Shown here: piece after piece, positions 2,362-45,500 of the stretch | How positions within the stretch are numbered: position 1 is the first letter of the stretch | How the letters are laid out: every line of letters starts with the position of its first letter | NCBI GenBank assembly: GCA_973895155.1 | Contig: OZ316891.1 | Span: 19,865,048-19,929,047 of the forward strand | Direction of reading: 5' to 3' | DNA: 64,000 nt | Origin: Marsupella aquatica | Lineage: Eukaryota; Plantae; Marchantiophyta | The notes under the pieces: generated by a model | What the model saw: only the letters and a program-made list of their open reading frames with translations | The model's database searches: none | Told to the model about the DNA's origin: nothing | Program-made: the position numbers and the translations under genes

Positions 2362-3067
2362 TCCTTCCACCAAACTCCACATGTGCCATGTAAGCACCAG
2401 ATGACGATGCTGTCTGGGCTTGACCCAACTTCTTCTATGCATCATCTGACAGCAAAGAGCTTACCACCTCATCGTATGAAATAGACTTCAGGTCTCTATA
2501 CAAGAGAACCTGCTTCAAACCCTAATAAGATGGGGATAAGGAGCTGAGAAGAAGCAAGGCCTTGTCCTCTTCTTCAACGCCCTTACTGAGATTAGACAAA
2601 TCAACAGCTAGGCTGTCAAATTCATCCAAGTGATCTTGGAGCTTGTTCCCCTCTTTGAGCCGAAGGCTCATTAAGAGAGACTTCTTGTACAATCAATCTG
2701 ATGCATCCTCCCGATAGTACTTCTCCCTTAGGGCTTTGAATAGAGATGCACAATCTGCGTAGTCATCCAACTTCTTGATGATATGCGGCTTCAGATAAAG
2801 CATCACCGCATTCACTGCAATTACTTGTTCCTGCCTCCACCTCTTTAGTGGAATCTCCTCCTCATCATCGTACATCTCTCGTGTAGAGAGAAGATGATCT
2901 AGGCCCATAGCGCGAAGAACTCCTTTCACTTGCTTCTCCCAGAGCAAGTAGTCTGTATGCCCATCATACTTTTCCACCTCAAACTTGACACCTCCGAACC
3001 TGGATGTCATCTGTTTTTCTTTCACAATCCCTTCTACTTGCTGCACCGATGATTGTACCGGTGTCAC
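2362..3067 (-). pseudogene. Ty1/copia gag (UBN2/Retrotran_gag_2-like), truncated
   Basis: VKFEVEKYDGHTDYLLWEKQVKGVL followed, past a stop, by LMSLRLKEGNKLQDHLDEFDSL...EEEDKALLLLSSLSPSY. Stops and a frameshift are present. It breaks off at ~2362 into the MTase-like gene. Confidence 0.85.
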
Positions 3068-4134
3068 CTGCGCTTCCTTCTGCTCCTCTCTCTCTCCTCC
3101 TCAAACCGTCGTGGTGATCCTCGTGCTTCAAGATCCACTTCTTCAAAAATCTCCTCCGAATCACTCATGTGAGAATGCAAGAAAAAATGACGTTTTTCCA
3201 ACTTCTTCAAAAAACTCAAAACTTATCACCGCCGCGTAGCCCACAAGCCTAGCTCTCCAATGCTAAAAATCAGAATCGAAACCAAACTCCGACGTAAAAG
3301 TTATTCACTTTTCGGTTGGGGTGGATAAAACTTGGAATTCTCCCTCATTTTGACCACCTCAGGGAATAACAAAAAAGTGAAATAGTACCCGACGTTGGAA
3401 ATGCAATTCAATTTGTGCATCGCGTTGCCAACTCCGATGGCTAGCAACTTGCCCAAGACGAAGGAAAAAAGTTACCTTTCGGCGGATGGAATTTTTGACG
3501 GACGGCCAAAAACATGCTCTCTATTTTTTGGGAATATTCCCGCATAGAGCAGCAGGGCTCACAAGGGCCGTTCCCCCTGTCCAAGCAGTTAAATTGGAGG
3601 GCGGCAAGTCCCGGGATGTGGCTACCAATCAAAAATTGGGAAAAAGAATAAAAAATAGGGGCTAAAGGGGGTTTAAAGCCCCATTATTAAATCGGGAGTA
3701 TAGAAAAAAAGGGGGGGTTGTTTGGACGATCGTGTAGAAGTCGGGGCGTGTACAGGGCCGGGGGGGGGGTGGCAAGGCGGGGGCGCGGGCTGCCGAGAGG
3801 AGCAGCCACGAAACGGCTGCCAGAAGCAGTCGCTGGTGGCGTGAAGGGCCGCAAAGGGAGGGACCAGCGAGAGGGCGAGGGAGGACCGGCGGGCTGATGG
3901 GAGCAACGAAGCCACCGGCCAGCACTTCAGTCACGAGCACGACCGTGGCTACGGCTAGTGTATTCGGGAAGGGGTGGTGGTGGGGTGCGTAAAGGGAGGG
4001 TCGAGAGGGGGATCGGGTGTGTGATGCATAGCCAGGAATCACTCAGCCAGTTAAGTAGGTAAAGCAGGAGTGCACCCTAGAAACACCTTAGTATAGGGAC
4101 AAAACAAGGAAAATATAAACAATTAGGGGCGACT

Positions 4135-4776
4135 ATGGAACCCGGGCCGAGGCCGGAGGTAAGGACGCTGGGGGTGAAAACAAGATTAGGGTTAGGGTGC
4201 GCTAAGCGTCGGCGGCTAGGAAGGATCAATGGGAGGAAGAACCGAAAGAGGAGAGGGGTAAGGAGCGCTTGCAGGGAATGGTGGCTCATTTGCAAGCACG
4301 AACTAGGCAGACGACTACGGGAGGCCAACTACTGTCAGCTGCTTAGGCAAGCACTCAGGGAGAGAGTAGATACCGACGATCGACCTAAGGAGGGTATGAG
4401 CAACGTCAATCAAGCAGCACAATTCTGGGGATGCCTGTTCGAACGGGCAACTGAGTACATCAAGACTTACGAGGACGAAGAATCAGAAAGGGCAGCTCGA
4501 GAACGGCAGGAGCTCGCTCGATTGTGGGAGCTACAGAAGATGGCTTTCTTAGGAGGCGAACTCATCAAGGCCGAGTTCTTGTGGACTCCTACTTCCAATC
4601 AGCTCGACGATCTTCTGTTTTGCAAAGATAGAGTCATCGGCATCCGAGAAGCCATCAAACGCTGCAACAACATACACTGGGAGTTGAAGGGTAGCACGGA
4701 GGGGTGGACAAAGGCAACCGTGCTAGGAGAGATCCACGGGAGCCGAAATGAAGAGGAAGGGAGCCGTCAACGATGA
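4135..4776 (+). CDS. Hypothetical protein (ORF1 of the unclassified insertion; true start uncertain)
   Basis: 213-aa open frame overlapping the start of the next ORF; no recognisable domain. Confidence 0.35.
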   Translation: MEPGPRPEVRTLGVKTRLGLGCAKRRRLGRINGRKNRKRRGVRSACREWWLICKHELGRRLREANYCQLLRQALRERVDTDDRPKEGMSNVNQAAQFWGCLFERATEYIKTYEDEESERAARERQELARLWELQKMAFLGGELIKAEFLWTPTSNQLDDLLFCKDRVIGIREAIKRCNNIHWELKGSTEGWTKATVLGEIHGSRNEEEGSRQR

Positions 4777-7772
4777 AGCTACCCCAGCAAAAAGAACGAG
4801 GTCGGCGGCACCAAAGAAGCCAGCTGAGCAGCAGAGCAGGAGGCAGGGAGAAGCCGAAGAGGAGGACGATCCCATCAATGCCATTCCAACCAAGGATGAC
4901 ACCTGGAAGGGCTGGGCGGCAACCCTACAAGAGGAGGTGCAACTACATTTTGCACGGGAGGAGGATGCATGCTTTACGGCCATGCAGACCAAGAAGTACC
5001 AAGGCTTCATGGCCGGATCCGGCTTAGAGGCCTTTGTAAGATTACCATGGCTGAAGCCGGAGGTGTCGGATTCAGACTTATTAGAATTCGTGGGGTCATG
5101 GGAACCCGAGACCAATTCCATGAGGATATATGGGAAGGATTTCTATCTTACTCCCAAGGTGATTGCCGAAGTGTTTGGCTTGCCGATAGACAATAAGACC
5201 AAAGTTGATACCAGGAAGACCTTGCCTGACAAGGAGTTCCGGTCGTTCCCCGGGCCATCAACGAAGAATAGCTTCTTCCGGAACACCTGCACCAACCCGC
5301 ACATAGGAGAGATGATCGACTTCTTGCGGGTGACCATGCATTGTAACTTGCCGAGGGCAGAGATCGGCAAGGCACGGGTCTATCTGGCAGAGAGGCCAGA
5401 CCCAAGCCGGGACTACAATGGGTACCTCCTCAACCAATTGAAGAAGATCTTAAAGGAGGAGCAGCAGGTAATCGGCATGGGGAGCGTGTCACGACTTGGC
5501 TATCACATGCCGCTGTTGTGCCGGTATGCCAGAGGTCAGACCTTTGCCCCAGTACTTCCCCTACAGGTAAGGACACCTGAGGAAGCTCCAGCATCGAGGC
5601 CGGTAGCAGAGAAGCCTCAACCACCTGTTAGCCCTACGATTGAGCAGGTGTTTAGGCCAAGGAAGGAAGACTTGCCGATGCAGCAACCAAGCATGCAGAA
5701 TCTGCTGAAAATGCTGGAGAAGGAAAAGACGGCACTGGCACCAGCTTCGGCAGCGGCACCAATACAGGACACTGCCCCAGAGGTCAACCTAAGCAGACTT
5801 AGAAGGGAAAACCCCTTTACCGGAAATAAGGAGAGAATTAGGCCAGAATCCAAGCCGGGTGTTCGAATATACGTGGGAGTCTCAAGCTCTGAATCTGAGG
5901 CAGAATTGCCTGAAGCTCCTACCGGCAAAGATGAGAGGGAGAAGCCAGAAGTCCAAGGGTTGGAGGAGGCAGTGGAGGACTGCAACCATGATAACTCCGG
6001 CTATGGGTCGGACCATCACGTTCCAGGAGTAAGGACCTGTGGCCGGTTTATCCCCACACTTCCAAGGGTAGTTTGAGGGGACCCCAACCAGCAGAGTAGC
6101 CCCGAGTCTCCCCCACCAGATGTTGCTCCCCCAAGCTTTGACGGCATAAAGCAAACGACACAGGAATTTCAGGAACGACTTAGGGAAGCAGAAAAGGCAG
6201 CCCTGGCTAGGGAAAAGGATTTGCCAGGAGGAGATTGGCCGGAGGACATCAGGCGGCTAGCCAAAAAAGGAAGCAAACCTCTAGCCACGATTGAAGAGAT
6301 CCGCAAGACGGCTTGGGAGCAGAGGCCGCGATGGGTGATGCCGATCACTTCTACTTACTCCACCTACGCTAAGAATAGAGCCATGGAGTATGGTGAGATA
6401 TGTGGGGAACTTGCGCTCGGCATCTTTGGGGAGGAGTTGGAGGTAGGACCCTTTTTCCATAGGGAGCAGTTGGAGAAGCACCAGTTAGAAGAAGCGGTGG
6501 CTTTAGAGAGAAGCAAGAAGGACGAGGTCATCCGGCGGCTTAGGAGGATGGAAGCCGAGATTGAAGATCTAAGGGCGGCCAAGAAAGCCCAAGATGAACT
6601 GCGGATTAAACGGCATGAGCTGAACATCATGCAGGGGCAGTTGGACACCGCGCAGGCTGATAGTCAGATTATCAAGGATAAACTGACTCAGACCCAGGGA
6701 GAATTGGCCGACGCAATCAAGGACAGGGAGAAATGGAAGAAGGAGCTGAGAGACGCAGAGGAGGCCCATATAGTAGTCAACAACCGGGTCACGACGAAGA
6801 CTCAGAGAAGGGAGAGGGCGCTGAAGGAAGAGCTCGAGGTCGTCCGCAGAGCCCTTGAGCAGAATGGAGGCCAAGTTAGGGAAATCCTATCAAGGGATTA
6901 TTGCGCTACAGCAGGAGCTTGCGTCCCTGTCAGCCAGCTTCAAGGCCGACCTACGGGAGAAGGACGCCCAGCTCGACCAGACTTATGCCAAGATGAATAA
7001 CATGGAGTCTGAGGTCGTAGCGGAGCTCGACAAGGAGCTAAGAGCAACCCAGGAGGAGAGGGCTACCACCAAGAAGGAATTGGAGGAAGCCCACAGGGAA
7101 TTGGAGGAAGCCAAAAACGAGCTGGAGAAGGCACGTAAGGACCTGGATGAGACCCAAGAGGAGTTGGAGGAAATCACGAGGAAGATGGAGAATCTATAGC
7201 GGCGGGCCGACAACCAAACAGAGCGGCTGAAGAAACAAGCCGTAGTATTTAAATGCTTAGCTGCATCAGGTCCATCTCCCGTTGGGGCAAACCAGTTACC
7301 CGGGGTGGTAATTGCCGAAGGACCAGCCGTGACACACGGCCCGGTGCCGGACGTTGGCAGCAAGGGGAAGGAACCGGCTATGGAGATAGTGAAGAAGAAG
7401 AAGCGGAAACCTTCAGGGTCCGGAGGTTATTCGACCCCTCAAGCCGTACTCAAACCGATACCAACCTCCGGCATGAACACGGCAATAGATTCCGCTACCA
7501 CCAAAGGTGGGGATGGCGAGACCCAAGCCGAACTACTCAGTAATGAGGCCGGTATCCCAGATCCACCTCTTGAGCAAGCCGGGGAGGCCGTGGCCGAGGC
7601 TGAGGCCGTAGCCGAGGCTGATGTTGAAGCCGATGCCGTTGCCGGGGGTGGGCCCAGTCAGGCCGAGTTGACTCAGTCAAGGGCAGGTAATCTGTCAGAG
7701 AACGAACCTACGGCAGTGGCTAAGGTGGAAGCGTTGGGGGCGTCCACTGAGGAACAGCCATCGCTGCCATGA
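4748..7772 (+). pseudogene. Plant-transposon accessory protein (Athila/Tat extra-ORF or PMD-like domain) with long coiled coil, ~1000 aa, disrupted
   Basis: GLEAFVRLPW...LLEFVGSW....MRIYGKDFYLTPKVIAEVFGLP resembles the plant transposon accessory-ORF pattern. ORFs 4748-6076, 6221-7000, 6855-7199 and 7305-7772 join through frameshifts and a TAG. The middle part is an E/K/L-rich heptad region. Confidence 0.6.
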
Positions 7773-9600
7773 CGGTGGTGGAGGGCCTCTCCTTTCAAGG
7801 AGGGCGGACGTGGAGGGAGGAGGCGTGAGTGGGCAGGGCGGGCTCAGATCTCTAAGTTTAGGATTAGGATCAGGACCAAGAGGCGGCCCTGACACTTAGC
7901 TTAGTGGGATTGCGGTTCCATTGGTAAGAGCAACACTTGTACTCCTGCCTCGCTGTACATAGGTAGATCCAGTTAGGTAGATTAGGCTTACGCTGCAAAG
8001 AATTAGGTGGATCCACTACCAGGATAAGTACCTGGGCAACGGGGAGCTCAGGGCCTCTTCTTTAGCAAGTTTTTAGTTTGCACCAGCCGGGCTGGGATCA
8101 AGTAGTAAGAGAAGCTCTCGGTTAGTCATATAGTGACCCTTGTGTATATTCATGTTTCCTCATGCCTAAGAGCTGAATAGAGTTGGCCTCATGGCTTAGT
8201 TCGTAGAGCTTGTGTATGAGATGTACTGTTTGTATGGCAAGTGCATGGTATGACTCAGTCAGAAGGAGTCATTTTGCTATTTGTGTGTCGCATTAACTTG
8301 TGTGAAGAGTGCCCACATCAACCAATAGAGGAAGGAAAGTAAGCAGGGGAGTGAGAGTTGGATGTGTCGAGCTGAGAGAGGTCTTAGCGGCTTAACCAAG
8401 CCTATTGGGGATCATTCCGGCGGCGGAATCCAAACATACCTAACAAGACGGAGGGGAAGACAAGGGAAGGCCTAGATTAGGCCGGCTACGTATCTCATGA
8501 CCCGATGAAGGATCTGTCCAGTATATGTGTGTAAAATGTTAATAGTAGTAGTAGAAGGAGGTTAGCAGCGTCCCATGCCGCTAAGCCGCGGAAACGACCT
8601 CGCCAAGCGCAAAACCTGCGGGAATCGGCTTGCGCTGGGGGGGTTTCTTGGGTTTAGGGAGCCATGGGACGCACCACAGGGTGTGTGCACACACCAGCTT
8701 GTAAACCCCCCTAAAATAACCAAAAAATGCCCCTCACAATACAAAGGAAATAACCACGCAATGCCAAGGAGAAGAAAACAGCATGTGGCTAGTAAGGGCC
8801 CTAATGACACTCACTCCTCTCCAAAGCGCGATGGAGGTCTCTAGAGAGAGATATGTTAAAGAGACGACACCCATTCAAGGCCAAGTCAATACTTTACATT
8901 GACAAGTCACATAAAAAGTCACCGCATCATAGGTCAGGGCAGGGAGATAGCAACACATGGATGAGCACATACACCAAGTCCTTCGCAAGTAGATAGATTA
9001 ACATAATAATACAGCCTGACCATTACAAGGGAGAAAACAGGTCCGAGACTTGTTGAGGTCAATATTTACACTGTAGCTATATCCTAGCATGAGTCAGAGA
9101 TCAGTAAACGCATAAGAACAGTATGTTACACTATAGCGTCCCCAGTCATGGGTGGAGCACAATAAAGTATGAAAGGAACCGAGTGAAAAAAGGAAGGGAT
9201 TTAATAAGTACAAGGTCTAACAAAAAGATGCAGGAGTATAGATCAGAGGACTGAAAAGTCATAAAGCAGAAAAGCCTAGTAAGAAGCTGTCAGTACCTAT
9301 ATACATGAGCAGTATGGATAAAGCAACACTTATTGTAGACAAAAAATTAGTGCAAAAAGGACAGGTTTTCAAAGAGGATATTTATAGGATATGGCATGGA
9401 ACGCATAAAAAGTCAGAACACAGTATGGTAAAGTTGGACATGTGCAAGGTAATAGGATTGATAGTACTATTTTATAAAAAACATATATGAACAATTCCGG
9501 TGTCACAACAAAGGTGCCATTAGATGGTGCAGGAAAAAACCCTTAGTATAAAAAGGGAGATATACTAGGCGGTGCTTCATATAAGCTGGTCAGGAAAATT

Positions 9601-9860
9601 GAAGTAGACCATCAACTGAAATTAAAGAGCAGTGGACACAAACTGCAATACATCCCCGAGGTCATCATTCAGCCCCCGTCCCCAGGGTGAATCAAGATTC
9701 TCAAAAAATGATTCTTGTTGTACGTTTCTGCTACCATTGAACCGCGGCGGTAACGAGGAGACGTACATTAATTTCAGGCTAGCACTATAGAGAAGAAAGG
9801 AGTAATAAACCAGGAAAAAGCATGAATCATACCTAGAGAGACTTGAGCCATACCTGTGGT
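9601..9860 (-). ncRNA. Candidate structured RNA, copy 1
   Basis: Minus strand: UGUACGUC-UCCUC-[GUUACC..GGUAGC]-AGAAACGUACA, a hairpin, CCCUGGGG-[ACGGGGGCUGAAUGAUGA]-CCUCGGGG, hairpin GCAGU/ACUGC, then AUGGUCUA. Covaries with copies 2 and 3. Confidence 0.6.
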
Positions 9861-11200
9861 CCTCATGCCATGCTGGTGGAGCCCGTGTGAAAAACAAACA
9901 CAACAATGCTCTGTGCAAAAGTTACTGCAATAGAGGATCTAGAGTACTAAAGTAATGATACATACCAGCAAGCTAAACAGACGAGAGCTGACAGAGAAGG
10001 TGTGAGATTGTGAGAAAATACTAATAGAGAATCTAGAGTACTGGAGCAATGATAGATAATGTCAAGCTAAACCAACGAGAGCTGGCAGAAAAGGTGTGAG
10101 AATGTACTTGAGAAAAAGATCCTGTCAAGAAAAAAGTCAGGAAGCAACTCGCTATCTCCAACGTAAACAGTTGTTAGGAAAGGACCTAGTCAGGAATAGT
10201 CATAGAGCAAGATGCGCCTAGAATGAAAATAATGAACAACTACAGTGCTTTTTAAGGTATGCATGGAAACTAGGGGAGGCAGCTGCGTGACGGGATGAAG
10301 TCGTGAGCGCTGTTAGGGCAACCGCCAGGGTGGTGGTTTACATTAGTAAAACCTAATACATGTAAGAAGTATTATTACGTATTTAGTAAAGTATCTGTAA
10401 TATAAGCCGCGGTATAGGGCAATTTTTAATTTTTTACTAGTTGTATGTAAGATTTTCATCCTTTATAGATAACTTTAATTTTATTCAGTATTGTAGGTCA
10501 AATGCCACCATTTATCCAAAGAGAGAGATATGTTTTATAAAGTAGCAAAAAACACCCAATCAAGGCCACATCAAGAAGTTACTTTGTCCATACATATAGT
10601 ATGTCTAAGTCCTACAGTAAGGTCTGGGAGGAGTCCTGGATAGATAAGCATTACACCTTATAGTCCAAGTCAAAAAACTTCATATATTGCCGGTGACAAA
10701 TGGTAAAGTAAGTTCACAGAAGTACAATGAAAAGTTCTGACGGAGATTATAGGTATCAAAAAAGTTACTACTCATACAGCCCTCAATTCGTTAATAGGAC
10801 AGGTCTCCAAATAGCTTAATCAAAGCATAGTGGCAGGTGCTGCAATTGGAGGTACAGCGTAAAACAAGGGATAGAAATAACTAATGATAGAAGTAATTAA
10901 CAAGTGTCAGAAATAACCAGGATTTGTTTATAAAAAAACTTTTCATAGAGTAATAGGTAGATAGATCTCAACGCCAGGGGTATAGAAAGAAGGATTACTC
11001 TATCAAGTCAACAAAAAACAATTTCTTGGAGATACTAGTGGTGTGGATAGGAGCGAATTGCTGCAGTGTTAGGAACAAAAAAAATTAGTTAGCATGGTCA
11101 ATATATGACATATATGTAGCTTGTTAGAACTGGCATATAGCTCTAAGCAGAGCTCTATGCATGGACCATCGGTGCATCAAATCTGTTAGTCTTACAGACA

Positions 11201-11463
11201 GAAGTAGACCATAAACCATAACTGACATGTAGTTGACTTGACTACATTGCAAGCCCTAGGTCCGTCATTCAGCCCCCGTACCTGGGGTGAATCAAGCCAA
11301 TTAATTGACAAATTCATGCTATATGTTTCTGTTACCAAGATGCCCAGGCGGTAACGGGGAGACATATATCAGTTATGGGCTAGACTAAGCTTTTCATGAA
11401 ATATAAAGAAAGAAACCAATATGAGAAGAGCGGTATTTGTTGAGCGCGCGCCATAGTTGTGGT
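11201..11463 (-). ncRNA. Candidate structured RNA, copy 2
   Basis: Minus strand: UAUAUGUC-UCCCC-[GUUACC..GGUAAC]-AGAAACAUAUA ... CCCCAGGU-[ACGGGGGCUGAAUGACGG]-ACCUAGGG, hairpin AUGUAGU/ACUACAU, then AUGGUCUA. Confidence 0.6.
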
Positions 11464-12414
11464 GGACAGGAAAGGAATCTTACACAAGTGTGCCTTGGAC
11501 TGCTCATAAAGTAACCCTATAGGGAAAAGAAAGAAATGCTAGTGGTAAAGGACGATAGAGCAGTGTGGGGCAGAGTGCTAATGGTGAGAGATGTAAAGGA
11601 CAAAAGCACAGATTGGGGCAGAGTGCCAATGGTAAGAGATAAGAAAACAGAGTGACATTGGGAGGAGATGAACAGCACCTGAGCCAGTCATTCAGCCTGG
11701 GGGATGAAGATGCTCAGAAGAATGCTTACGCAGAGAGGGGAGGTATCATGCAAAAGGAATGTTGAAGAATTGTGCGTCAGAACCAGTGGTGATTGTCTAT
11801 TTTATAAGGATAAAAGTGTTGGTAGGGCATCTTACGTAAGAAGGGAGAGAAGTTGTTTTTTAGGTTTTTAGTATTTAGGCGTACTGTAGCCGTTAGATTT
11901 AGGGTGAATTTAAATAAGTGGTGTAGATGTATAGATCTAAGTGTCTCTTGCGTAAGGTGAGCAATACGTACTTAGATATTATTTTCATGAGTATGCATGG
12001 CTTAGTATTAGTATTTTAATGGGTATATTTTAGAGAGAATCATAGAGTTGCGGTACAAGGTGCTTAACTAAGATAGATTTATATTGAATGGGTCATCTTG
12101 TAAAAAGAGAGAGAGAGAGAGATATTATATAGATATATTACATCCTGCATTAAAGCAGGTCCTATTGTTCTCTATTGGCCATTCCTTGATTCAACATTCA
12201 ATCATATGCAGAGTATGGATCATACATTCACACATATAGTTTTTGGTACTGCGAACGTCTATTAACCATGGAAGTCAGACATGCTTATTCTGTATAACAA
12301 CTCTTATTTATAAATTGTCCATTTTCAAAACAACTAGGTCTATAAAGCTGAGTATCTTTTGATGTTGAGCTCTGCTTGGTGACAGTTGTACTCAAACGCT
12401 GTGTCCACAACATT

Positions 12415-12667
12415 GAGCATGGACCATATTCTTTTACCGGGAATGGACGGATTGTTTCCATTCACAATTCCAATGTCTTCGTTCAGCCCCCGCCATTGGA
12501 TCGAGATTGTGCTTTAATAGGCACAATTTCTAGTCTCATGTTTCTGCAGTGATGTCTAGATGGCTGCGGGGAGACATGGGCCGGAAAAAGTCGAGTCTCC
12601 CAAGCCTTGTTATGTTCCTTTTTATTATTAACTCCAACATCACATTTATGCATACCAATATGTCGTG
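12415..12667 (-). ncRNA. Candidate structured RNA, copy 3 (most diverged)
   Basis: Minus strand: CAUGUC-UCCCC-[GCAG..CUGC]-AGAAACAUG, hairpin AUUGUGC/GCACAAU, UCCAAUG-[GCGGGGGCUGAACGAAGA]-CAUUGGA, hairpin GAAUGGA/UCCAUUC, then AUGGUCCA. Confidence 0.6.
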
Positions 12668-14000
12668 AATGGAATAGAAAAGAAGGAGCAACATCTTCTG
12701 TAAAAAAAATGTGAGCTTAGCACCTGATTTGGTGGGGTTCCCATTGAGTCACGATAGGCTGTGTGTCACTGTGTTGCCTCAGCAGTCCTTGATCCTTGGC
12801 CTGCGCTGCTAGTCCCACGATCTTCTTGCCAGTGCAGTGTGTCCTCTTACTCTGCCATGCATGTCAGCCTATGCTCCCCACAGGGTGTGTGCTTCTTCAC
12901 CTATCGAGTGTTTTCAAAGAAATGTAAGCTCTGTGGCTGGATGGCTGGACTTGGTAGCACCGCTATCTTGGCTTGCTTTTTAGGTCATGGGCTTTGGTAT
13001 CTGGTTGTTTTGTGTGGCCCAGATGTTTTGGGAATAAATCAATGGCTTCGGTGGCCGGATGATTATCTCCTGGTTATTCTGGATTTTAGTTTTAAATTTA
13101 TCCCTGTATCAGGTGACAGGGGGTATATGTCCATAGTGCATATCATGGGACCTACCCACATATGATGAGATCATGATCCTTAGCCATGGGAATCATTAGT
13201 GGCTTATCATATTCTTTTCTTGAGAGAGAGAGAGAGAGTATTTTTCGAACCAAAAATTGGCCCGTAAGAAATCAAAAAATGCTTGTGGAAATCAAACGAA
13301 AAGAGCTTGCACCTTGTAACATTCGGATTATGGTGAGGAATCAGAAACCGATGTCGGTGGGTTGGAAAGATTTGCGCACCCACACCGTTTGCTGGTCAAT
13401 CAGTGGCAAAAAATCAGAACTCCTTCCTCCTGTGGGAAAAATCGTCAATCTTGGACTCAAAACGATCACCTCTTCGTGATCTATCCGTTCAGCCCAAGCA
13501 CTTGACGTCTCTCCCTCCAAGTCAAGCGCAATGACGAGAAACCCCGCTCAGGCAAAAGAGGACTCCATAGCCGGTCAGAAAATCAGAATGCTTCTTTTGC
13601 TCGTTGCGACGCACTCGTTACACACTCGACAACAAATCATCTACCAAAACAATCAGCTTGTCCCGATCTACAAGCAGAGCTACAGCGTGCGACGCCTCCT
13701 TCGCCGTAGAGCTCACACCATCGGGAAAACAAAATCTGGTCCCTCCTCCAAAAAACCGTCGAACACGAATGTTGCCAACTTTTTTCACAAATTCCAGAAT
13801 GACAAAAACTTAGATCTCTCCGCACCACAATCTCCGTTCAACAATTTCTTCGCACCGTTAGAAAGGCCTTGCCCCGATCTATCCGCTGAGCCCATAAACT
13901 CCAAGTTCCATGCGACGGAACTCCGGGAAATCCACCGATACTCAACGCTGGAAAAAACCGTCACAAAATCCCGTCACGAACAATGTCACCTCCCAAGCAT

Positions 14001-14012
14001 GCTCTGATACCA
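14001..14012 (-). other. Primer-binding site complementary to tRNA-iMet
   Basis: Minus strand TGGTATCAGAGC, 2 nt after an LTR end ...TCAACA. Confidence 0.9.
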
Positions 14013-14330: not shown

Positions 14331-16203
14331 CCCTAGACCTTGAGTAAATACCTAACAAACTTGTGGGAAATCTCATTGACCCTATATGTTTGCGAAACTC
14401 AGTCCGCATTAGGAGGATCCATAGATGGCCAAAACCCATGAGGGCCATGCATCCCCATCTCCTCACAACTCTCTCTCCAATTGTTGTCTTTCTCTCCATA
14501 TAGATGGCGAATCAATGACCTCCCAACATTCCCCTCAATGTGCATAGGGTCAAACAAATGGTTAATTGGCATCTCAGCCCAATATGGCAGCTTTGACATT
14601 AATGCAGACAAATGAGTTATGCCACACCGGGCCAACTATAATGGATCATCCGGGTCTATCACTCTATCCCATACATCTTTCCAATAGCGTGGATCCCTTG
14701 GCACTGGTTGAGGGCGTGTATCTGGTTGGCCATCATCTGTGTCATGTAAGAATGGGTCACACCTCTATTCATGCTCTGGGGGGAGATACTTTGTGTGACC
14801 AATGTAAACTATCTTCCATAGGGTGGTAGATTTTTGGCGCGCCACTCCCTCCAAATTGGGCCCTCAAGTTGGGCAAGCTCGGTATCCCGAGACCTGCAAC
14901 CCAAAGATATATCCAAACCCTACAATGTTCACACCCACTACATACATTAAACATTGGCCAGGGGACCAATATATGACAAACCAAGGCATAATCAATATGG
15001 GGTGAGGTATATTATCTAGCAATAACAAGCCATGCATAATTAATATGGGGTGAGGTATATTTCCACATACCCGGAAGATCATGTACATGGTCCACATACA
15101 GATGGCTTTCAATTTAAATTCACGAGGTAAACCACCTGCAAGCACTCGACCATCATAGCAATCCACTCCTCTCTATAGTTGTTGAAGCTCCTCCAACAAT
15201 GGTTGCAAGTAAACATCAATCTTCTTTACTTGCTTGGGGCCTGGGATAATCATTGAGAGTAGCAAATGACCCTTCTTCATGGCCATCCATGGAGGGATGT
15301 TGTAATTTGTAAGGACTACTGGCCAAACTGATCGAGTATGGTTGGGCCTTCCCTGCCAATGCAAAGGGGCTGATCCCATCTGATGCCAAACCTAGACATA
15401 CATGACGTGGATCTGTCTTGAAGTCACCCCATCGGCCCTCCACAAACCTATTTGTAGGTGAGTCCACCATCATACGCATGGTGGGCGGATCTGAAGTCAT
15501 ATCTGACTGGTTCTTGGAATGCCACACCATATACTCAATCAACTCCGCACATCGGTACTGGTGCCATAATCTGGGGATAAGAGGAAAATACCTCATGACC
15601 TTCTGTGCTACTTTTCCAGTGAGCATTCCTCTTGATACCTCGATTGGTCACATGTAGGACATGTAGTGGCATCTTGTGTTCCCCCCTAAAGAGAACACAA
15701 TCATTCACACAAGCATGTATGACTTCGGATTTGAGACCTATGGATTTCAACACCTGTTTTGTTGCTTTCCAGGAACTAGGCAAGCAGTTCCCTTCTGGAA
15801 AAATCCGACTATGCAAAGTCCTGAAAAGATCATCAAGAAGGAGATTGCTTGCTCCATGTCTTTGTTGCAAGTTCAACAATAACATTATTCCTGATAGTCA
15901 AGATAGTTGTGACCCCTCAAAAATCCGTGTTTGTGCATGGTCACGAGCTTCCTCCCATTGTCTAGAGTGGGAACCTCGTGAAGGATTGTCACGATGAGCA
16001 TGTGTTGTGGTGTCAAATTCATCACCCACACCATGCTCACCATCCTCTACATCATAGAACTGGTGCATAAGATCATCCATGGCCCTCTCATTCTCAAGTC
16101 TGTCATCGGTGGCATTAGATACATGCTCAAGAGGGATATCTTCATTTGCTAAAGCTTGAGCCCTATGCCAGTCTTCCATGGCCTCACCAAGGTGTTGCCG
16201 CAT
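14330..16203 (-). pseudogene. CACTA transposase (Transposase_21/TnpD-like), frameshifted
   Basis: IHACVNDCVLFRG, KVMRYFPLIPRL, DPRHVCLGLASDGISPF, SVWPVVLTNYNIPPW...SMIIPGPKQ..IDVYLQPLLEELQQL, SGYRACPT and FDPMHIEGNV are spread across shifting frames. Confidence 0.92.
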
Positions 16204-21879: not shown

Positions 21880-22400
21880 TTGGGGGTGGGCAGGTTGGAG
21901 GGAGTGCAGCCGATGATGGAGAATCTTGGCACTATGGCCGCACTGGGGGTGGCCAGCCTAGAGGGAGCGCAGGCGGTGGTGGTGGAGTCTCTCACCACGC
22001 AGGCAGCACTGGGAGTGGTCGACATGCCCTTGGCCAATCTGGAGGGAGTGCAGGCAGTGGTGGTGGAGTCTCTCACCACAGAGTTGGCACTGGGGGTGGT
22101 CGGCATGCCCCTGGCCAGTTTGGAGGGAGTGCAGGCAATGGTGGTGGTGTCTCTGAGCATGTGGGCAGCACTGGGGGTGGTCGACATGCATGCCCCTGGC
22201 CAGTCTGGAGGGAGTGCAAGCAGTGGTGGTGGTGTCTCTCAGCATGCGGGCAACACTGGGGGTGGTGGACATGCCCCTGGCCAGTCTGGAGGGAGTGGAG
22301 GTGGTGGTGATGGGGTCTCTCACCACTCAGGCCTTGGAGCAGCTAGTCATGGTGCCCCTAGCCAGTCAGGAGGGAGTGGTGGTGGTGGTGGTGAGTCACG
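21880..22400 (+). repeat. 81-bp tandem repeat encoding Gly/Ser/His-rich 27-aa units
   Basis: CACTGGGRGTGGT recurs at 22007, 22088, 22169 and 22254. The last interval includes a 4-bp CATG duplication that shifts the frame. Confidence 0.85.
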
Positions 22401-23009
22401 ACATTCTACTGCCGATGGGATCAGTGGGGGGGGGGGGTCCTGCAGCTTCCTTTCATACTTGCCGAGGCAGCGGAGAGGGTGTGCCCACTCATGGCTCAGG
22501 GGCTTCCCATGGTGGTGGTGGTGGGGTTGGTCCACTTCCCTCGCCACTTCCTCAGGTTGCCTCTACACTTGGGACAGACGACCTGGACCAAGCCACCATG
22601 GACCAGACCACCTTTACCAAGGCTTCTCCACCCGCACCTCCTCGGACTTGTTCCAAAAAGAGGAAGGGACGACATGCTCCATTTTGAGTTGGTCGCAAGT
22701 CAGATAGTTGACCAGCATATGCAGAGTAGAGGCATAGTGTCTTCGAGCACAAAGATTAGACCATATGGGGCAGAATGCTATTTCTTATTTGATCCAAGTG
22801 GATCACACTTGTACATATTGGGGTCTATATGTATATATTCATTTTGGGGGCTTGAGAACCCTTTCCGGCCATGCATGGGTTCTAATTAGTTCTATGTGGC
22901 ATGGTTTTTTCAATAAGCTCCCCAATGCCTCTAAAACACCCCTAAACCTAAACCGAGCCCTAACCCTAACCCCCTAAATATGCTAATTAGCATGGCATCC
23001 ACAAATCCC

Positions 23010-23773: not shown

Positions 23774-24000
23774 GTGTTTAGTACCGAGAGTATTGAGTAC
23801 TATAACTAAGGTATTGGTATTAAGTACTATTGGTATTGGGTACTATATGTATTGAGTATTATATGTATTGAGTACTAAAGGTATTGAGTACTGTAAGTAT
23901 TGAGTACTAAAGGTATTGAGTACTATAAGTATTGAGGTATTTAGTACTAGCACCAGAAGTATTATGTATTATCAAACAAGTACTAGGTACTAAGTATTGT
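23774..24000. repeat. Degenerate 16-bp minisatellite (GTATTGAGTACTAWAR)
   Basis: About 10-12 tandem degenerate copies. Confidence 0.85.
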
Positions 24001-24521: not shown

Positions 24522-27500
24522 TTACCTATTTGCTGAATCCAAAATTGCTTGAAAAGTGTTAGGGGCAAACTCGAACCCTGGTGATCCCCTCAGTACTTTT
24601 ATCGGCACAAGTCCAAATTTTATGTGAACCACAGATGCCACATCAACATAGCTAATGCTAGATTTCTCGTTACGAACAAAGCAAGTCGGGTGCCTACCGT
24701 ATTGCTGAAACCAAGTGCCTGCCAAAACTACATCCCCCTTACAAAATTCAGCAGCATAGTCATCTGTGAAATCAATTTTAACAATGTGAGCCTTCTTTGT
24801 ACACAACAGAATGTAGAATTATGCTTTCCAAATGCTATTTTCTTCAGCCTTCACAGCAAAATAGTCACCTACTTCAACCAGATCACCAATGTAGCCTTCA
24901 TAGTCACAGGTCTGGCTGTCCAACCCACCGCCCATGTCTTCGATGATGGCTGCAATATCTCCAGGATTTTTGGGGTACACATAATCTACCTCCCATGGCA
25001 GAACATGCGCCTTATTTGCACAATGTTCCAGACTCTCTGGATGAAGTGCACACTTGTTGCAAAAGCAAGCTAGTTCTCTACATTTTAGCATCATGGGATT
25101 CTCAGGACTGTATCCCAAAAAACAATGCTTTTGTCTCACACCTTTGATAGGCAAACATTCAAGGGTTGAGGTCCGCTTCACCTCTTGCACACCAACCTCC
25201 CAGAAAAAATGCCTGACACCCTGCTTCTTGTCATACTCCATTTTCTTTCCCAAGCAAAAATGTTCCCTTAGAAACTCCACCACGTCCTTTTCACCCTCCA
25301 TCGGGTGCCCTCCTTCTTTCCGCAATTGCTCCTTTTGAAGAGCGTGCTTCACTCCACCTCCTAGTCCATCCTGTGCCAACAGGTATATAGCATCAAAGTT
25401 GTCATGTTGAAAGGAAATAAACATTAACATAAAACATAATAGTAAGAGAAGACCAAAAAAGAGTGGGAACTTGAATTATATTTACATGCACATCTTTCCC
25501 GTGCCCTGAGGCATGGAAACACCACAATAGTGGCACCCCATACTCATGGTAATATTTTGACATGTACAAAAAAGGACGGCAAGCTTTAAATTGTGTTGCT
25601 GACACTCGTCTGACCACATAATGTGATTGTTGACAAAGAATCCTTTCTCCCTCATCCACATCCAATGAAAATCCAGGTTGTGCTGCACAAAGAAGGTATC
25701 ATGGCTATTCCCTTGGAATGGTAGCCATAAATAAATCAATTCAGTTCCCCCGTGAAAAGCCCCACGGGGAGGGCGCACAAACAGACCAGGTTTCCCGGGA
25801 GGCAGCCAAGAAAGAACAGAGGGCCAAACCTCAAAAAACCAACCCAAATCCACCTAAGGCAAGGAATTACTCTCCCCGGAGACACCTACCAGCAACCCAA
25901 ACCCACACCACACAAACTCACAACCAGCTTGAGGGCATCAGTGCCCCCAGAACCAAACATCCATTGGTCTCAACGTTCAAACATCACTGCAAAATCAAAG
26001 TCACCCAGCGGAAGTGAAACTGATCCCCCCGCTGCCAAGCCAGCTCCTGCGAAGCCCATCGATACATGATTTAGCGCGCAGCAGGCGAGTGCACTTCTTG
26101 CCCGGGGGGCAACGCCGACCAGCAGCGAATAAGTTTTCCACTGCCTCTGACAGTACAAGTCCCAGGTCAAACACACGTCTCCCCCCCGTCTGAAACATGT
26201 GAGTGTTTCTCCCAATCCAGAGCCTCCAGAGAATCTGGTGCAAGACAAAAAGTTGCGCCACTCGGATCGGCTCCCTCCCACAGGCTGCATCTAAAAGGGC
26301 CATCAGCCCTTGTCCAATTGGCATATCCAGCGCACTCAACGAGGTCAAACAGAGACGCCAGCAACAGACAACATGTGCACATTGGAAAAAAAGGTGAGGG
26401 ATGGTTTCCAGCCGTCCGCTGCACAACTTGCAGTCACCATTGCTCACCTCTAATCTAAGTGCACGGGCCCCAGTGAACAAGCCCCCCACAATGATCCTCC
26501 ATATAAAGGTCTTGCCTCTGGTTGGTAAATCCGATCTCCACAGTCTGGACCAGCTCTCATTCCATCCTCTCTCCTCTCGGGTAAGAGACCAGATCCTATT
26601 CAGGCGTTCGTGATTTGAGGTCTTGGGCCGCAAGAAGTCATACACTCTGCAATTCTGAATTCTGAAATCCTTCAATGGTTCAGGTCTATCTGTCCACCTC
26701 CACTGTTTGGCATACAGGAAGTACTCTGACCGGCAGTGTGAAGCGCTCCATATACTTTCCAAGAACTTCCGTGCAAGCAATTGATGCTCTGCAGAGAATC
26801 CACGCATGTTGCTCCATCTAAGCGGGAGGTCATCTGAAATACAAAAAAGTGATAATCAGCCTCAATAAATTGGGTGATCCTTTGACCATTTTTGTCACAC
26901 ACCATAGGGTTGTCCTCCTCATTGTCATACTGGTGCGGGTAGGTGATCAGAACAAGAATGGTGATTTGTCTATTATCCCAATGAAGGGATTGTACCTCGT
27001 CCTGTGATGCAAACGTGTAATTCTCTGCAAATGTCAATGGAACTGACTATGGTACCTTTCGGAAAGGACTTAAGACAATTTTGGTACTGCTCAGCTTGCC
27101 ATCTAGCATAGAAGTCATGTTTTATAAATGTTTGTATAGAACCTGTCACCTTTTCCATGAACACCACCATTGAGGTGACTTTACTTACTAATCTAAGCCT
27201 CTTTGTAGCCTTAGAAAGTTGTGCATCATCATTCTGGACTTTCTTCTTTCTCACACTATTTGGCTTTGGCAAATCATCTAGGTTAACATACTCATAAGTT
27301 TGCCACACCACAGATTCCGTCTCTTCATCCACTCTTTCCTCCCATGGACACAAATCTAACAGCCCTGGCCCACAGTCCTCACAATCACCTACCAAACAAC
27401 CACTCTTGTGCCAAAGATCACCTTCTCCTTTTGCACATAAGGTCTCTGCACACCACTCTCTCACAGACAATTGTGTATGCTTGTGAGCTTTGCATGGTTC

Positions 27501-31556: not shown

Positions 31557-32153
31557 TATGGATTTTGGCGGACATGTGTTGTGTGTCGTGTCACGATTAT
31601 CTTTTTCTTGTTTACATGGTGTGTCGCGATGTGAGTTGTGCATGGATGTGTGTTCGCACGACAATTGTTACTCCATGTTGCATTTAGGTTGCAACTTTGT
31701 TGGTTGCACATGTTGTGTTGTGAGTTTGGGAGGGTGACCTGGTATAGCAGGTCACCTGGTAGGGATAACCTGTTCACGCAGGTCACCATGCCCTTTGTAC
31801 CATGGGGGTATACCTTGGAGAGTGAGGATTAGCTCATCATTCTTCAAAGTTGAGCCTTCAGGCACTAGTAGAGCTCGTGTGAGTGTGCCTATGGTGAGAG
31901 AGAGAAAGTGTATGTTGATTGGCATGTAGAGCGACATTAGCAGGGTTTTGCTATGTGTATAGACTCGGAGTTCTCCATGGCTAGTGGGTGAGTTTGGCTC
32001 GACTTAGTGATACCTTGCGGTGGGGTTCCATTTTGTAAGAGATTGTTATGGATTTTGGTGTACATGTGTTGTGTGTCGTGTGATTATCCTTTTCTTGTTT
32101 ACATGGTGTGCCGTGATGTGAGTTGTGTATGGATGTGTGTCCGCACGACAACA
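31557..32153 (+). repeat. 3' LTR of the gypsy element, with ~105-bp direct repeats at both ends
   Basis: Follows the purine tract AGGGGGAGG (31547-31555). 31557-31663 is repeated at 32047-32150. Ends in CA. Confidence 0.7.
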
Positions 32154-32580
32154 TCTTTTACTTGATAACATCTTTCACATAACGACATCTTTTTACTTCA
32201 TGACATCATGACATCTTTCACATAATGACATCTTTTGTGCAATGCACGGGTAATGAACTATTTTGTACTTCACAACATTGTTATACTTAAAGAAAACCTT
32301 TGGCATATCGCTTTCCAACATCATTGGCAACACCACCTCTATTTGATTTCTTGGCCGACACGACATTTTTTGTTCTCACCAACATCTTGGCCGACCTGAC
32401 AACTTTTGTTCTCAACGACATCTTGGGCGACACAACATCTTTCTTCTCAACGACCTCTTGGCCAATACGACATCTTTTGTTCTCAACAACATCTTGGGCA
32501 ACACAACATCTTCTTCTCAACAATCTCTTGGCTGACACGACATCTTTTATTCTCAACGACATCTTGGCTGTCACGACATC
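32154..32580. repeat. Degenerate ~30-bp tandem repeat (TTCTCAACGACATCTTGGCCGACACGACATC)
   Basis: About 8 clear copies at 32345-32580, with decayed GACATC units upstream. Confidence 0.8.
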
Positions 32581-32599
32581 ATTTGTGCTACGCACGTGT

Positions 32600-33130
32600 A
32601 TTGAACTAGTATTGTTAAACAACTGGTTTGGCTCTTTGGTTATGTCATTGGAACATATCAAGTAATGTTCAAATATTATTGAGTCATATATTGTTAAGCA
32701 GTTGGTTTGGCATTCTGGTTATGTCATGGGAAGAGTGAGGTTATCAAGTAAATGAATTGTGTTCAAATAATATTGAATCTCATGTATTGTCATGACACCT
32801 TGATATGTCATGGAAGAAGGAGGTTATCAAGTAAGTGAATTGTGTTCAAATAATATTGAATCTCATGTATTGTCATGGCTCTTTGTTGATTATCTCACGA
32901 AAAAGGGAGGTTATCAAGGAAGTGAGATGTGTTCAAATAGTAATGAATCTCATGTATTGTTAATCAGCTATTCTCATGTATTGTTAATCAGCTATTCTCA
33001 TGTATTGTTAATCAGCTGGTCTGGCTCTTTGGTGATGTAATTTGATTAGCTCATGGAAATGGGAGGTTATCAAGGAAATGAGATGTGTTCAAATAGTAAT
33101 GAGCCATGTATTGTTAATCAGCTGGTCCGG
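32600..33130. repeat. Degenerate ~85-bp tandem repeat with an internal 24-bp triplication
   Basis: GGTTATCAAG...TGTGTTCAAATA...CATGTATTGT at ~32739, 32822, 32909 and 33065. Confidence 0.8.
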
Positions 33131-33361
33131 CTCAGATTATTTGGAGGCTCCTATATGGTGAATCCACCTTTCAGATTTTGTCTCATTCATATTTTGTGTC
33201 AAGTATTTTGATTTTAATGTGCCTTAACAAGGTAAATCATCTGTATTAATTTGATTTTGAATTAACTTTAGGACCTCTCTTAATTTTAGTGAATTTATAG
33301 TATTTTGAATATATTTGGCTCCCCTCATCAAGGTTTAATCTTTACTTTTCAATCACTCCTT

Positions 33362-33770
33362 AGTGAATTCTCTTTCTTCTCATGAGAGTGTAAGAAATGA
33401 ATTTGATCAATGTGAACATCTGGTGTATTAAGTTCCCTTGATGGTTTACTTGCAAAATTTATGATTTTAATTGAATGACATTACCTAGAAGCAAGTGAAA
33501 ATTCTCTTTCTTCTCATGAGAGTGTAAGAAATGAATTTGATCAATGTGAACATCTGGTGTATTAAGTTCCCTTGATGGTTTACTTGCAAAATTTATGATT
33601 TTAATTGAATGACATTACCTAGAAGCAAGTGAAAATTCTCTTTCTTCTCATGAGAGTGTAAGAAATGAATTTGATCAATGTGAACATCTGGTGTATTAAG
33701 TTCACTTGATGGTTTACTTGCAAAATTTATGATTTTAATTGAATGACATTGTCTAGAAGCAAGTGAAAAT
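33362..33770. repeat. Near-perfect 134-bp tandem triplication
   Basis: ATTCTCTTTCTTCTCATGAG at 33367, 33501 and 33635. Confidence 0.95.
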
Positions 33771-35037: not shown

Positions 35038-36631
<1,594 letters not shown>

Positions 36632-42500: not shown

Positions 42501-45500
42501 CAATATCTAGACAAATCAAACGCAAAATATTACAACAACGGTACCTTTGGGGCCTGCCACTTTGTAGTGTCACAAAATATGGTGAACACCGCAAGACTCA
42601 TGATTGTGAAGATCTGTATTCAGAATCCTGAACCTGTGACCTTTCCCAAGGATGACAGAAAAAGTTGACGTACTGTCAAACAATGAATACGTAACCTCAA
42701 TGAGCATTACACGTACCTTTCCTTCTCTGGATCAACAAGTGCAACAGAGTTCTTGGGATCCATGAATCTAAGATAGTACCTGTTGCAAGTATCACAAAGG
42801 CCGGCATCAGATGTCGGAGATATAAATAGGGTCATGGCTCAATTCAAATACGACCTGTCGAGACGCCAAGAAGCCAAGTTGTTTCCTACTGCTGCCTGGA
42901 CTTCATATCTCCGTCCGCATTGAATATCGCAAAAGGCAGAGAACAAGGTCTTGATCATACCAACAAGAACCTGCCCATTGCGGCATTGTATTCGTCTCTC
43001 GTTGAGCTTGTTTCCCTGTTTCTTTGTCAAATGTCTTTACCTGTTTGTGAGCCACCAAAACATCACATACGCAACCAGAGTTGCAATGAATCCCAAACAA
43101 GGAAAGAAGCATTGATCAGACAAGAGTGGGGCAGCTAAGGTTGTGCAGTTAACCTCATTTGTACGAACTTGTGAGGATCGTTATTCAATGAAGTCATCAT
43201 CGTGTATGAATCTAGTGAATGAATATCGCCTATGACATACAAGATAGTAAATGCTCCTTCTGACTTCAGACATTTCCCATAAACTTCAAAGACAATGCAC
43301 GTATCTTGGGTCTCATACGTTCAAACATCTCAAAGTACTTCAACACTGCATAATAAGCCATTGAACGAAGCTTACCCAAGAGGTAGCCTTTGCTAATGGA
43401 GGCTCGCCAGTCCCAGTGGGTGTGAAGTCATCTATTTCTGGAAGTCTTATGGGAAGTTCACTCTCTGACACTGCTTGAGGCGTGCTTGACTCATCAACAA
43501 AAATAATTGGAAATGGTTCTCCCCAGTATCGTTGCCTGGCAAACAGCCAGTCCCTAAGCTTATAATTAACCTGTTTACAAAGAATCCCTTCTATATCAGA
43601 TCAATAATATGGAAACCCAGTCACTCGATAATCCATCACACAGGACCAGCTTAACAAAAAGCTGAATCATATTGCTACATATGTCAATCCACACATTCGT
43701 TATCAGAACCAACACCAAACAGGCTGCTTTTCCTAGAAATTACTAACAAATGCAGAGTAGACACAGTAACAGTACCTGTCTTTTCCCCTGACCAATCAGT
43801 TCAAGCCATTCAGTAATTTTGACAGCGGCTTCGGTGTTAGGTAGACCGTTCAAGTCAACTCCCAGCGAACCATAGGAAGAGTTGATAATAGTGCCACTGC
43901 CTGTGTAGGCACTTTTGCCGTCCAAGGCCCTATCTTCTCCCTGTGCAACGACAAACCTTATTGGAAGGCCGAATGCCGTTGCAAACTCAAAATCTCTTGA
44001 GTCATGGGCAGGGACTGCCATGATGGCTCCTGTGCCATAGCTGCAATTTACAAACAACTTATTTGAGCAAATCGGATACATATACAAGTGTGCAATACAT
44101 ACACAGACGTGCCTCCAGTGAGAACAGTATGTTTGCTTCATAGATAAACACAGTCTACAACTGACCAATTGACTATTAAAGACTGGTCCTTTGACAGGGC
44201 ACTGAAACACAAGATTGTGATGCCAGACGTAAATTAGGTAGCATACCTGCCTAGTACATAATCTGCAACCCAGATGGGTATAGCTTCTCCGGTTGCTGGA
44301 TTTGTTGCTGTTGCTCCAGTAAAGATTCCAGATTTAGTCTTCTGAAGTTCTTTCCTCTCCAGATCACTCTTCCTTTTCGCAGCTTCAACATATTGTTCAA
44401 CCTGCCCCACTTTTCTGTCGTCAAAATATATAGCAAAGAAATTCACTAAAGCAATCTATTCAACTGGTCAACGCATTCAGATTTCAATAACTGCTTTGAA
44501 TCAAAAGGAACCTTATATGCAGATACTTAACGACTCCACCCTGACAAATGCTTCCACGAACTCATTTGATTTCTGGATTGTCCCCACCGTAAAACATAAT
44601 AGAGACTCAGCAGAGTAGTTGCTCCAGGCTGTTTAGTGGTCTAGCTCATACTGAAAGGGAAAAACGTACCACAGCCTGTTGCTCTACTGTAGTTAGCTGA
44701 TCGAGCAAAGGATGCTCGGGAGCAATGACCAAGTATCTGTTCTTATCATCAGAAACACAAAATTGCCAAGTAAGCCCTATGAATAAAAAGTCTTTTGCTG
44801 TGGGCAAACTGGTCATGGCCATGCAAAAACAATCTTCCTGAGGGCTAAATTGCTCATTTGCTAAAATCTGTTGTGGAAAAGGAAAACAGCTCCACTTTGA
44901 CAATAACAGATAACGGTCTAGTCAAACAGTGAAAGACTGAGGTTATGAGCTTACGTGGCACCACAAATAGTGTCTGGTCTTGTTGTGAAAACAGTCAAAC
45001 CGATTGAGCTCTCATAACCACCAGCACCCACAATATTGAAATTAATTTCAGCGCCTTCAGACCTACCAATCCAGTTTCGCTGCATGTCCTTGACGCTCTC
45101 TGGCCAATCAAGCGTGTCCAGGTCCTCCAGAAGCCGGTCAGCATATGCAGTTATCTTTAGCATCCACTGTTTCATTGGCTGTCACACTAAGAAACGGAAT
45201 CAATGGTCCAGCAAAGCGCAAGATGTGCTCTTTCTTCAAACGCTACCATCAAAAGAGAAACTCGAAAAAATTCCTCTACATACACGTGGATTTCAGTGTC
45301 GAAGCATGGACGAGGATGCACCAACTGTAAGCCTCCTCTTCTGGGTATATTTAGATTGAACCAAACGAGGATGTAGTAGATGATTACCTTTCGTAGCACT
45401 GGATAGCCGCCACGTTCACTTAGCCCATCAATTACTTCCTCATTTGCCAACACAGTTCCAAGAGCTGGGCACCAATTCACAGGAACCTCGGCCTGCTCAT

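Follow-up and report, generated by a model that had tools for sequence, protein, structure and literature searches.

A stretch of 64,000 nucleotides (nt) from the liverwort Marsupella aquatica (contig OZ316891.1, positions 19,865,048 to 19,929,047; hereafter the window) carries on its minus strand three copies of an element that we read as a hammerhead ribozyme with a split core. The conserved blocks follow the order cleavage site, GAAA, CUGA (S-G-C). The element is probably self-cleaving, with predicted cuts after a GUC at 9760, 11361 and 12573, and it would belong to the minus-strand transcript of a likely non-autonomous retroelement that would target (CT)n tracts. The three copies share the core words, stems I and III and a helix that encloses the C block; the helices covary, the copies belong to a multi-copy family, and one ribozyme is found in each (CT)n-bounded unit. 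An earlier note on this DNA, made from the letters alone, had proposed a folded minus-strand RNA in a mobile element, such as a self-cleaving ribozyme. The conserved, covarying fold supports such a reading.

Fold of the three copies

Copy 1 (W1) extends from 9605 to 9779 and comprises stem III, stem I, a hairpin between the S and G blocks (the S-G hairpin), a spacer hairpin, the enclosing helix and a further hairpin, hairpin 4. A closing stem spans 9779-9614, and the predicted cut lies 3' of C17 at 9760. The other landmarks along the minus strand are a self-complementary loop word (9748-9741), G12 (9728), C3 (9672), the GUC of the hairpin-4 loop (9637) and a distal AUGGUCUA (9612-9605). Copy 2 (W2), also on the minus strand, occupies 11205-11382, with C17 at 11361, the loop word at 11349-11342, G12 at 11329, C3 at 11272, the hairpin-4 GUC at 11237 and the distal motif at 11212-11205. 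Copy 3 (W3) occupies 12420-12590 of the same strand (C17 12573; loop word 12561-12554; G12 12544; C3 12486; distal motif 12427-12420). Three elements had indeed been placed at these sites by the earlier note, but with other limits. The parts that it named exist, as do its 18-nt loop, the G12-to-C3 distances of 56, 57 and 58 nt and the change from U-A to C-G in copy 3, all in the minus-strand sequence; the outer closing stem, the self-complementary loop and the hairpin-4 GUC had been overlooked.

The pairing of the GUC strand with GAAAC forms stem III, of 7, 7 and 5 base pairs (bp) in copies 1, 2 and 3. Stem I, of up to 7-8 bp, joins the nucleotides that follow C17 to the RCGGGGG preceding CUGA. 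Each of the three copies has stems I and III, the words GUC, GAAAC and CUGA-A-YGA, and the helix around the C block. The helix previously called the outer stem of hairpin 1 is real and is identified here as stem III. Likewise, the pairing between RCGGGGG and UCCYCGY, taken before for a kissing loop or pseudoknot, is present and is stem I, and what had been listed as stem 3 and hairpin 2 are the enclosing helix and the optional hairpin after stem III of type-SGC hammerheads. The statement that a hammerhead fold cannot be completed here does not hold: all three blocks and both flanking helices assemble in the SGC topology.

Two metagenome loci described below, L002 and L006, share these features. 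The block order is the same in all five sequences, as is the GUC; stems I and III have at least 4 bp (7-8 bp possible in stem I, 5-7 bp in stem III), and A15.1-U16.1 is kept. In each of the five, the C block reads CUGA-A-YGA, with an extra A (A6a), where the published word is CUGAnGA without insertion. GAAA is preceded by C-A (C-A-GAAA), and no local register yields an ordinary stem II; none gives two adjacent stem II pairs in all copies. The S-G linker holds a hairpin of 16-21 nt.

The pattern of the 18-nt loop has exactly three perfect matches in the window. When up to three mismatches are allowed there are four matches against 0.49 expected, a number reached in none of 100 shuffles. A stem-agnostic S-G-C descriptor, which contains no stem letters, matches only these three sites in the window; on 20 block-wise shuffles it gave four matches in all, none with a stem I of at least 7 bp. 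A search with the covariance model did not reveal a fourth copy elsewhere in the window, the best other match scoring 8 bits. The window has no Rfam match at the gathering score, and the two matches beyond it (E 2.7 and 8.7) are of chance quality. The folding z-scores of the copies taken singly (-0.8, -1.9 and -1.3) are weak, as expected for a pseudoknotted fold.

Independent members and covariation

Pattern scans of sequence collections gave 46 loci: 13 from metagenomes, 10 from prokaryotes and 0, 3 and 20 from viral sets. The patterns fixed part of stem I and left the outer pairs of stem III and the enclosing helix free. The metagenome loci L002 and L006 form 21 and 22 of 22 stem pairs, respectively; of the remaining loci, 42 reach at most 9 of 22, and two do not assemble. 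None of the viral matches (0, 3 and 20) shows the helices, and none of the 10 matches in prokaryote genomes is real. The covariance model recognised no member among the other 44 loci (best score 13 bits).

In the alignment of W1, W2, W3, L002 and L006, 94.6% of the cells pair and 16 of the 26 pairs change on both sides. The observed covariation was reached in 0 of 500 shuffles, and slid controls pair in 38-45%. The enclosing helix has changes on both sides in 8 of 8 pairs and 95% of the cells paired. The two unrelated metagenome contigs retain all the helices, but in other letters. There are 9 G-U pairs against 3 A-C, in favour of the minus strand, as the earlier note had argued from its wobbles. 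While the stems are unrelated, C3, G5, G8, G12, A15.1-U16.1 and C17 are identical in all five sequences.

Hairpin 4 of L006 (561-539, minus strand) contains an unbroken AUGGUC-GAAAC, which is the G block of the published SGC variants compared here, and may have been left over from the event that split this block. L006 (733-1134, minus; 134 codons with one stop) and L002 (about 950-1336, minus) also have stop-poor stretches, which precede the ribozyme on its own strand. They are possibly decayed ends of open reading frames (ORFs) of an autonomous partner. No relatives of the open stretch upstream of L006 were found, which is weak evidence.

Comparison with known ribozyme classes

The text, alignments and supplement of Eckert et al. 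2023 (PMC10085705) that were compared here describe the type-SGC hammerhead as a non-circular permutation with its blocks in the order S-G-C, in which a helix surrounds the C block as a stem I-II interaction and a hairpin may follow stem III. Those ribozymes come from metatranscriptomes only, average 65 nt in length and cleave at 0.007-0.19 per min; stem I of HRIMA-1 has 5 bp. The element shares with them the block order, stems I and III formed as pseudoknots, the helix around the C block, the optional hairpin, the single base between A9 and the conserved G, and the words GACC and UGGUC. Its C-block loop has 18 nt, against 19 nt in most HRIMA-1 rows of that alignment.

The element departs from these alignments in several respects. 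The C block is CUGA-A-YGA, either form of which has no match in the supplement of PMC10085705, and C-A-GAAA stands in place of C-GAAA. A stem II of 5-6 bp adjoining GAAA is lacking, and a hairpin with a self-complementary loop takes the place of a 3-nt S-G linker. Hairpin 4, the closing stem and the distal AWGGYC are additions, and the whole is 175 nt long and lies in eukaryote genomic DNA. On these comparisons, we regard the element as a hammerhead that would work in the SGC manner, a variant of SGC outside its published descriptor. The earlier note, which recognised no described family in it, therefore stands in part: for the architecture, which departs from the SGC alignments compared, but not for the S-G-C order, which is published. 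No earlier report of a genomic or plant SGC ribozyme was found in the literature searched, which covered few subscription papers.

Unusual cores are known among natural hammerheads. In the part of Perreault et al. 2011 (PMC3088659) compared here, examples with an A6a insertion, of low activity, or with a stem II of 1-2 bp are circular types I-III and reported to be rare, whereas A6a is fixed in all five sequences of the present set.

A circular hammerhead of types I-III was rejected: there is no Rfam match, and the circular descriptor has no match in the window. Ribozymes resembling that of hepatitis delta virus (HDV) are recognised by P3/L3, P1.1 and a J4/2 with the catalytic C. No HDV family matched at E up to 10. 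The earlier note had likened UCCUCGY to the L3 loop of such ribozymes; UCCYCGY here belongs to the covarying helix beside CUGA, and an HDV-like reading is unsupported. The hairpin-ribozyme and HDV readings were also dropped after inspection by eye.

Added parts and two builds of the junction

The closing stem has about 6-14 pairs and is weakest in L006. The loop of the S-G hairpin is self-complementary in all five sequences, with a different word in each, and its best pairing partner is in every case itself. A spacing of 4 nt separates stem I from the start of the palindromic word in four sequences, and the majority form of copy 3 has this spacing too. The product of the shuffle probabilities for this self-complementarity is about 1e-5, a post hoc value. 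The GUC in the loop of hairpin 4 lies 34-36 nt from C3, directly in four of the five sequences and also in the family of copy 3; its chance probability, with any triplet allowed for, is about 7e-4.

The distal AWGGYCNA is found 59-62 nt from C3 in all five sequences, and is similar to the strand of stem II that stands ahead of GAAA in the SGC variants compared from PMC10085705. In only two of the five does the C-block 3' strand find its best downstream partner in this motif. In copy 3 the motif falls outside the best downstream partners of this strand, and in copy 2 a second AUGGUCCA at 11163-11156 (minus strand), about 43 nt downstream of the distal motif, pairs better with it than the distal motif does.

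Two builds of the junction can be drawn. In the local build, stem I would have 7 bp and stem II a single pair in a four-way junction; G10.1 can pair with the C before AGAAA in 4/5 sequences, beside an A.G or G.A in 5/5. This build leaves the hairpin-4 GUC and the distal motif without a partner. In the split build, stem I would have 5 bp as in HRIMA-1, and the next two bases would pair with the RC before AGAAA and lengthen the S-G hairpin; all 10 cells of this extension pair. The RC at the start of the 18-nt loop would take the GU in the loop of hairpin 4 as its partner, again in 10 of 10 cells if the majority G is taken for copy 3. A composite stem II would then consist of N.A (the A linked to G12), G-C and R-Y, with one strand supplied by the detached distal AWGGYC. 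The G-C pair is formed in four of the five sequences and R-Y in all of them (A-U, G-U, A-U, G-C, G-C).

The two contested pairs have about equal energy in either helix in four sequences; the hairpin of L002 starts with a mismatch and is not properly scored. Given this near-equality, it is plausible that the junction switches between the builds. We prefer the split build, in which each conserved motif would gain a partner. A version with the extra strands swapped (the distal strand on RC and the hairpin-4 GUC on G10.1) fails in two of the five sequences.

Variation in sequencing contigs

Contigs from four sequencing runs of two studies were aligned on the copies, 36, 85, 79 and 48 of them on copy 3; a further run gave no contig there. 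A place was called variable when a variant reached at least 12%, and sites were classed in this analysis as core or stem, or as spacer, loop or linker. Contig cover is continuous over 9500-12750 and peaks at all three copies, most highly at copy 3, although such depth does not measure copy number. The cover of copy 3 far exceeds that of the others, and its flanks are of several different kinds.

Among the 32 variable places of copy 3, four (12452, 12536, 12550 and 12561) occur in the window alone, another letter being present in 90-100% of the contig depth. Two of these private changes disrupt base pairs, a third makes the loop palindrome shorter and the fourth abolishes a loop GUC; copy 3 is partly decayed. 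The other 28 places fall on 17 of 51 spacer, loop or linker sites and on 11 of 120 core or stem sites (Fisher p=2e-4), and at 12496/12473 a swap between A-U and G-C segregates. The contigs thus represent a family of many copies whose variation is concentrated in spacers and loops.

The homology within the family has loose ends and often includes sequence before the cut site, as far as the closing stem. Copies that keep this sequence have not simply been reverse-transcribed from the 3' cut product. A contig joint 9760/10497, seen in three runs, adjoins the predicted cut; it rests on 32 letters with the intervening sequence unknown, and was not used.

The carrier units

On the minus strand, (CT)n tracts at 13222-13238, 12106-12122, about 10519-10528 and about 8842-8851 border three non-coding units, and exactly one ribozyme lies between each successive pair of tracts. 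Unit 1 (8852-10518; 1.69 kb) has its ribozyme about 0.75 kb in, at offset 744-961, and unit 2 (10529-12105; 1.61 kb) at offset 739-956; unit 3 (12123-13221; about 1.1 kb) contains copy 3. The last 135 nt of units 1 and 2 are 65% alike, and elsewhere these units share a single weak match of 43 nt. These facts suggest that the units are likely non-autonomous retroelements stacked in a microsatellite; an empty site was not observed.

The end motif shared by units 1 and 2 (8843-8901 and 10520-10586, minus strand) stands just before (CT)n, with raised contig cover at the second, and is a candidate recognition signal for reverse transcriptase (RT). Short tandem repeats of 94 and 48 nt occur in units 1 and 2 (9929-10105 and 11545-11640); read along the minus strand, they come before the ribozymes.

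The three units lie in the end of a larger insert of 9.6 kb (3640-13250), flanked by a 10-bp direct repeat (3630-3639/13251-13260). The insert lies within the leader of a long terminal repeat (LTR) element, which it apparently interrupts. The primer-binding site of that element, which we take to be of the tRNA-iMet type, is at 14001-14012 on the minus strand, and its gag-like ORF (2693-3100), presumably Copia, has no Pfam match. Within the insert, a run of ORFs on the plus strand (4081-7772) encodes coiled coils and an unannotated domain of 235 amino acids, with no informative Pfam match; the run is reminiscent of the additional ORFs carried by Tat/Athila or Mutator-like elements. For the ORF at 4748-6073, a full HMMER search gave 13 distant relatives, one of them from the liverwort Calypogeia fissa, and word search gave no match and Pfam no informative one. 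Its structure model is poor (predicted local distance difference test score, pLDDT, 48).

It is worth considering that the copies might be internal signals of one large element, for instance a Tat-like or Mutator-like element with antisense ORFs, rather than separate units. The 10-bp repeat does flank the whole of 3640-13250, and the contig cover runs unbroken over 9500-12750. One ribozyme per (CT)n interval, the length, offset and end sequence shared by units 1 and 2, and the far deeper cover and several flanks of copy 3 point the other way. We consider a single large element unlikely, while giving it appreciable weight; it bears on the carrier and not on the fold.

Relation to other ribozyme-bearing elements

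According to the parts of Craig et al. 2021 (PMC8557442) compared here, the Naiad/Chlamys Penelope-like elements target microsatellites and occur in the green lineage; they have no canonical hammerheads, and some have 'half cores' with the second half 35-50 nt off. The present units would resemble them in a putative microsatellite insertion, in non-autonomous head-to-tail copies, in a divided hammerhead core and in the green lineage. The reported targets there are (CA)n, (C)n and (TA)n, against the (CT)n tracts that bound the units here, and no RT or pseudo-LTR as described there was found in these units. The loop motif has no match in the supplement text of PMC8557442, where line breaks can hide matches. 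A link to Naiad/Chlamys is only a guess, because no RT ties the element to that clade.

The units are, like the plant LTR retrozymes in the part of PMC4918200 compared, non-autonomous retroelements with hammerheads. Retrozymes and Penelope-like elements, as far as the compared parts of PMC4918200 and PMC4209133 describe them, carry circular hammerhead types with LTRs or tandem repeats, unlike the element here. An LTR retrozyme, defined by near-identical LTRs with a type III hammerhead and a strongly paired RNA between cut sites, was rejected: the copies are only about 70% alike, over 190 nt alone, and the segments between the cut sites, which are not strongly paired, fold no better or barely better than eight shuffles. 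In Penelope-like elements, type I hammerheads can work in pairs, as dimers, by means of palindromic loops (PMC4209133, in the part compared); the palindrome caps helix III there, whereas here it caps the added S-G hairpin and differs between copies.

Other features of the window

An ORF at 23-526 on the minus strand, likely continuing to about 1500, has an N6/N4 DNA methylase domain (PF01555, E 2e-07) and may be transposon-borne or horizontally acquired. Pfam finds a CACTA Tnp2 fragment and a zf-RVT fragment of a long interspersed nuclear element (LINE). The CACTA, LINE and host-gene exon stretches are at 15216-15897, 26001-26855 and 35038-36631 (all minus), 43743-47547 and 50536-62865. The exons, judged by their translations, are presumably those of EF1A (with introns), a leucyl-tRNA synthetase-like and a P5-ATPase-like gene. 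With EF1A, the CACTA and LINE fragments and the transposon ORF related to one of Calypogeia fissa, the window has the look of nuclear DNA from a land plant. Tandem arrays at 21950-22407, 23800-23952 and 32143-33767 have units of 81, 16, 36, 83 and 134 nt.

Discussion

G12 and G8 act as base and acid in all hammerheads. In the present element, the unit would be transcribed on its minus strand, and the RNA would fold into the knotted hammerhead once the distal strand has been made; G12 and G8 may then serve as base and acid in the cut after GUC. The cut would set an end of the element RNA, which could be the template of an RT acting in trans. The palindromic loop may pair two like transcripts, and so either gate cleavage or present a dimer to the RT.

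Several observations weigh against a self-cleaving SGC variant carried by a retroelement. None of the three copies matches the published SGC descriptor, which, in the part of PMC10085705 compared, takes the words CUGAUGA(U)G and CGAAA, 2-6 bp of stem II immediately ahead of the latter and no more than 8 nt of S-G linker. The A6a insertion is reported to lower activity in the natural hammerheads compared from PMC3088659. The fold was derived from the same five sequences that test it, and these are not independent, because W1 is a relative of W2 and a single metagenome yielded both L002 and L006. The five sequences do not separate the local from the split build; the covariation of the distal R-Y pair is weak among them, arising 3 times in 10 by chance from the margins, and in L006 an A at position 10.1 breaks the conserved stem II pair in both builds. 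In two of the four runs, 17% and 12% of the contig depth has an A in place of G8, and one G of stem I varies in 6-14% of the depth. These changes are at CpG sites, which suggests that many copies are likely dead or decayed. Finally, no RT, GIY-YIG domain or terminal repeat was found in the units.

The fold might alternatively be derived from a hammerhead and no longer cut, or cut only with a protein, and serve as a signal for dimerisation or RT recognition. The core off consensus and the lack of an ordinary stem II would agree with this, as would the conserved self-complementary loop, each example of which pairs best with itself. The contig cover is deepest on the S block and this loop, and the homology often passes upstream of the cut to the closing stem, so that copies do not start at the cut. 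A binding signal, however, would not need catalytic positions identical in all five sequences amid unrelated stems, and we consider such a signal rather improbable. Still less probable is a new class of small self-cleaving ribozyme that borrows hammerhead words and builds another active site with the hairpin-4 GUC and the distal motif. These two extra motifs at fixed distances and the invariant A6a, all absent from the SGC alignments compared, might be taken for it, but three hammerhead blocks and both flanking helices fit the published topology exactly. Chance, or the coding constraint that the earlier note had raised as a spliced exon, can be practically dismissed: the weak single-copy z-scores would suit it, but no long ORF was found over the copies, shuffled and slid controls fail, and independent contigs keep the helices.

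A self-cleaving SGC variant therefore remains our preferred reading. It would place SGC hammerheads, so far obtained from RNA of unknown hosts, in land-plant DNA, as a multi-copy repeat with relatives elsewhere. A more specific proposal is doubtful on the present sequences, namely that in plant retroelements the G block is split, stem II is completed 60 nt downstream and cutting is gated by kissing of the palindromic loops. If true, such a topology would lie beyond the six proposed permutations, in which the G block had been held 'uninterruptible'. The detached stem II strand and the palindromic loop would offer a probe of how a hammerhead core can be rewired and its cleavage switched by pairing. 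Ribozymes of this kind are invisible to Rfam and to the published descriptors. Retroelements said to be free of hammerheads may therefore carry them, and the ribozyme counts of plant genomes may be too low.

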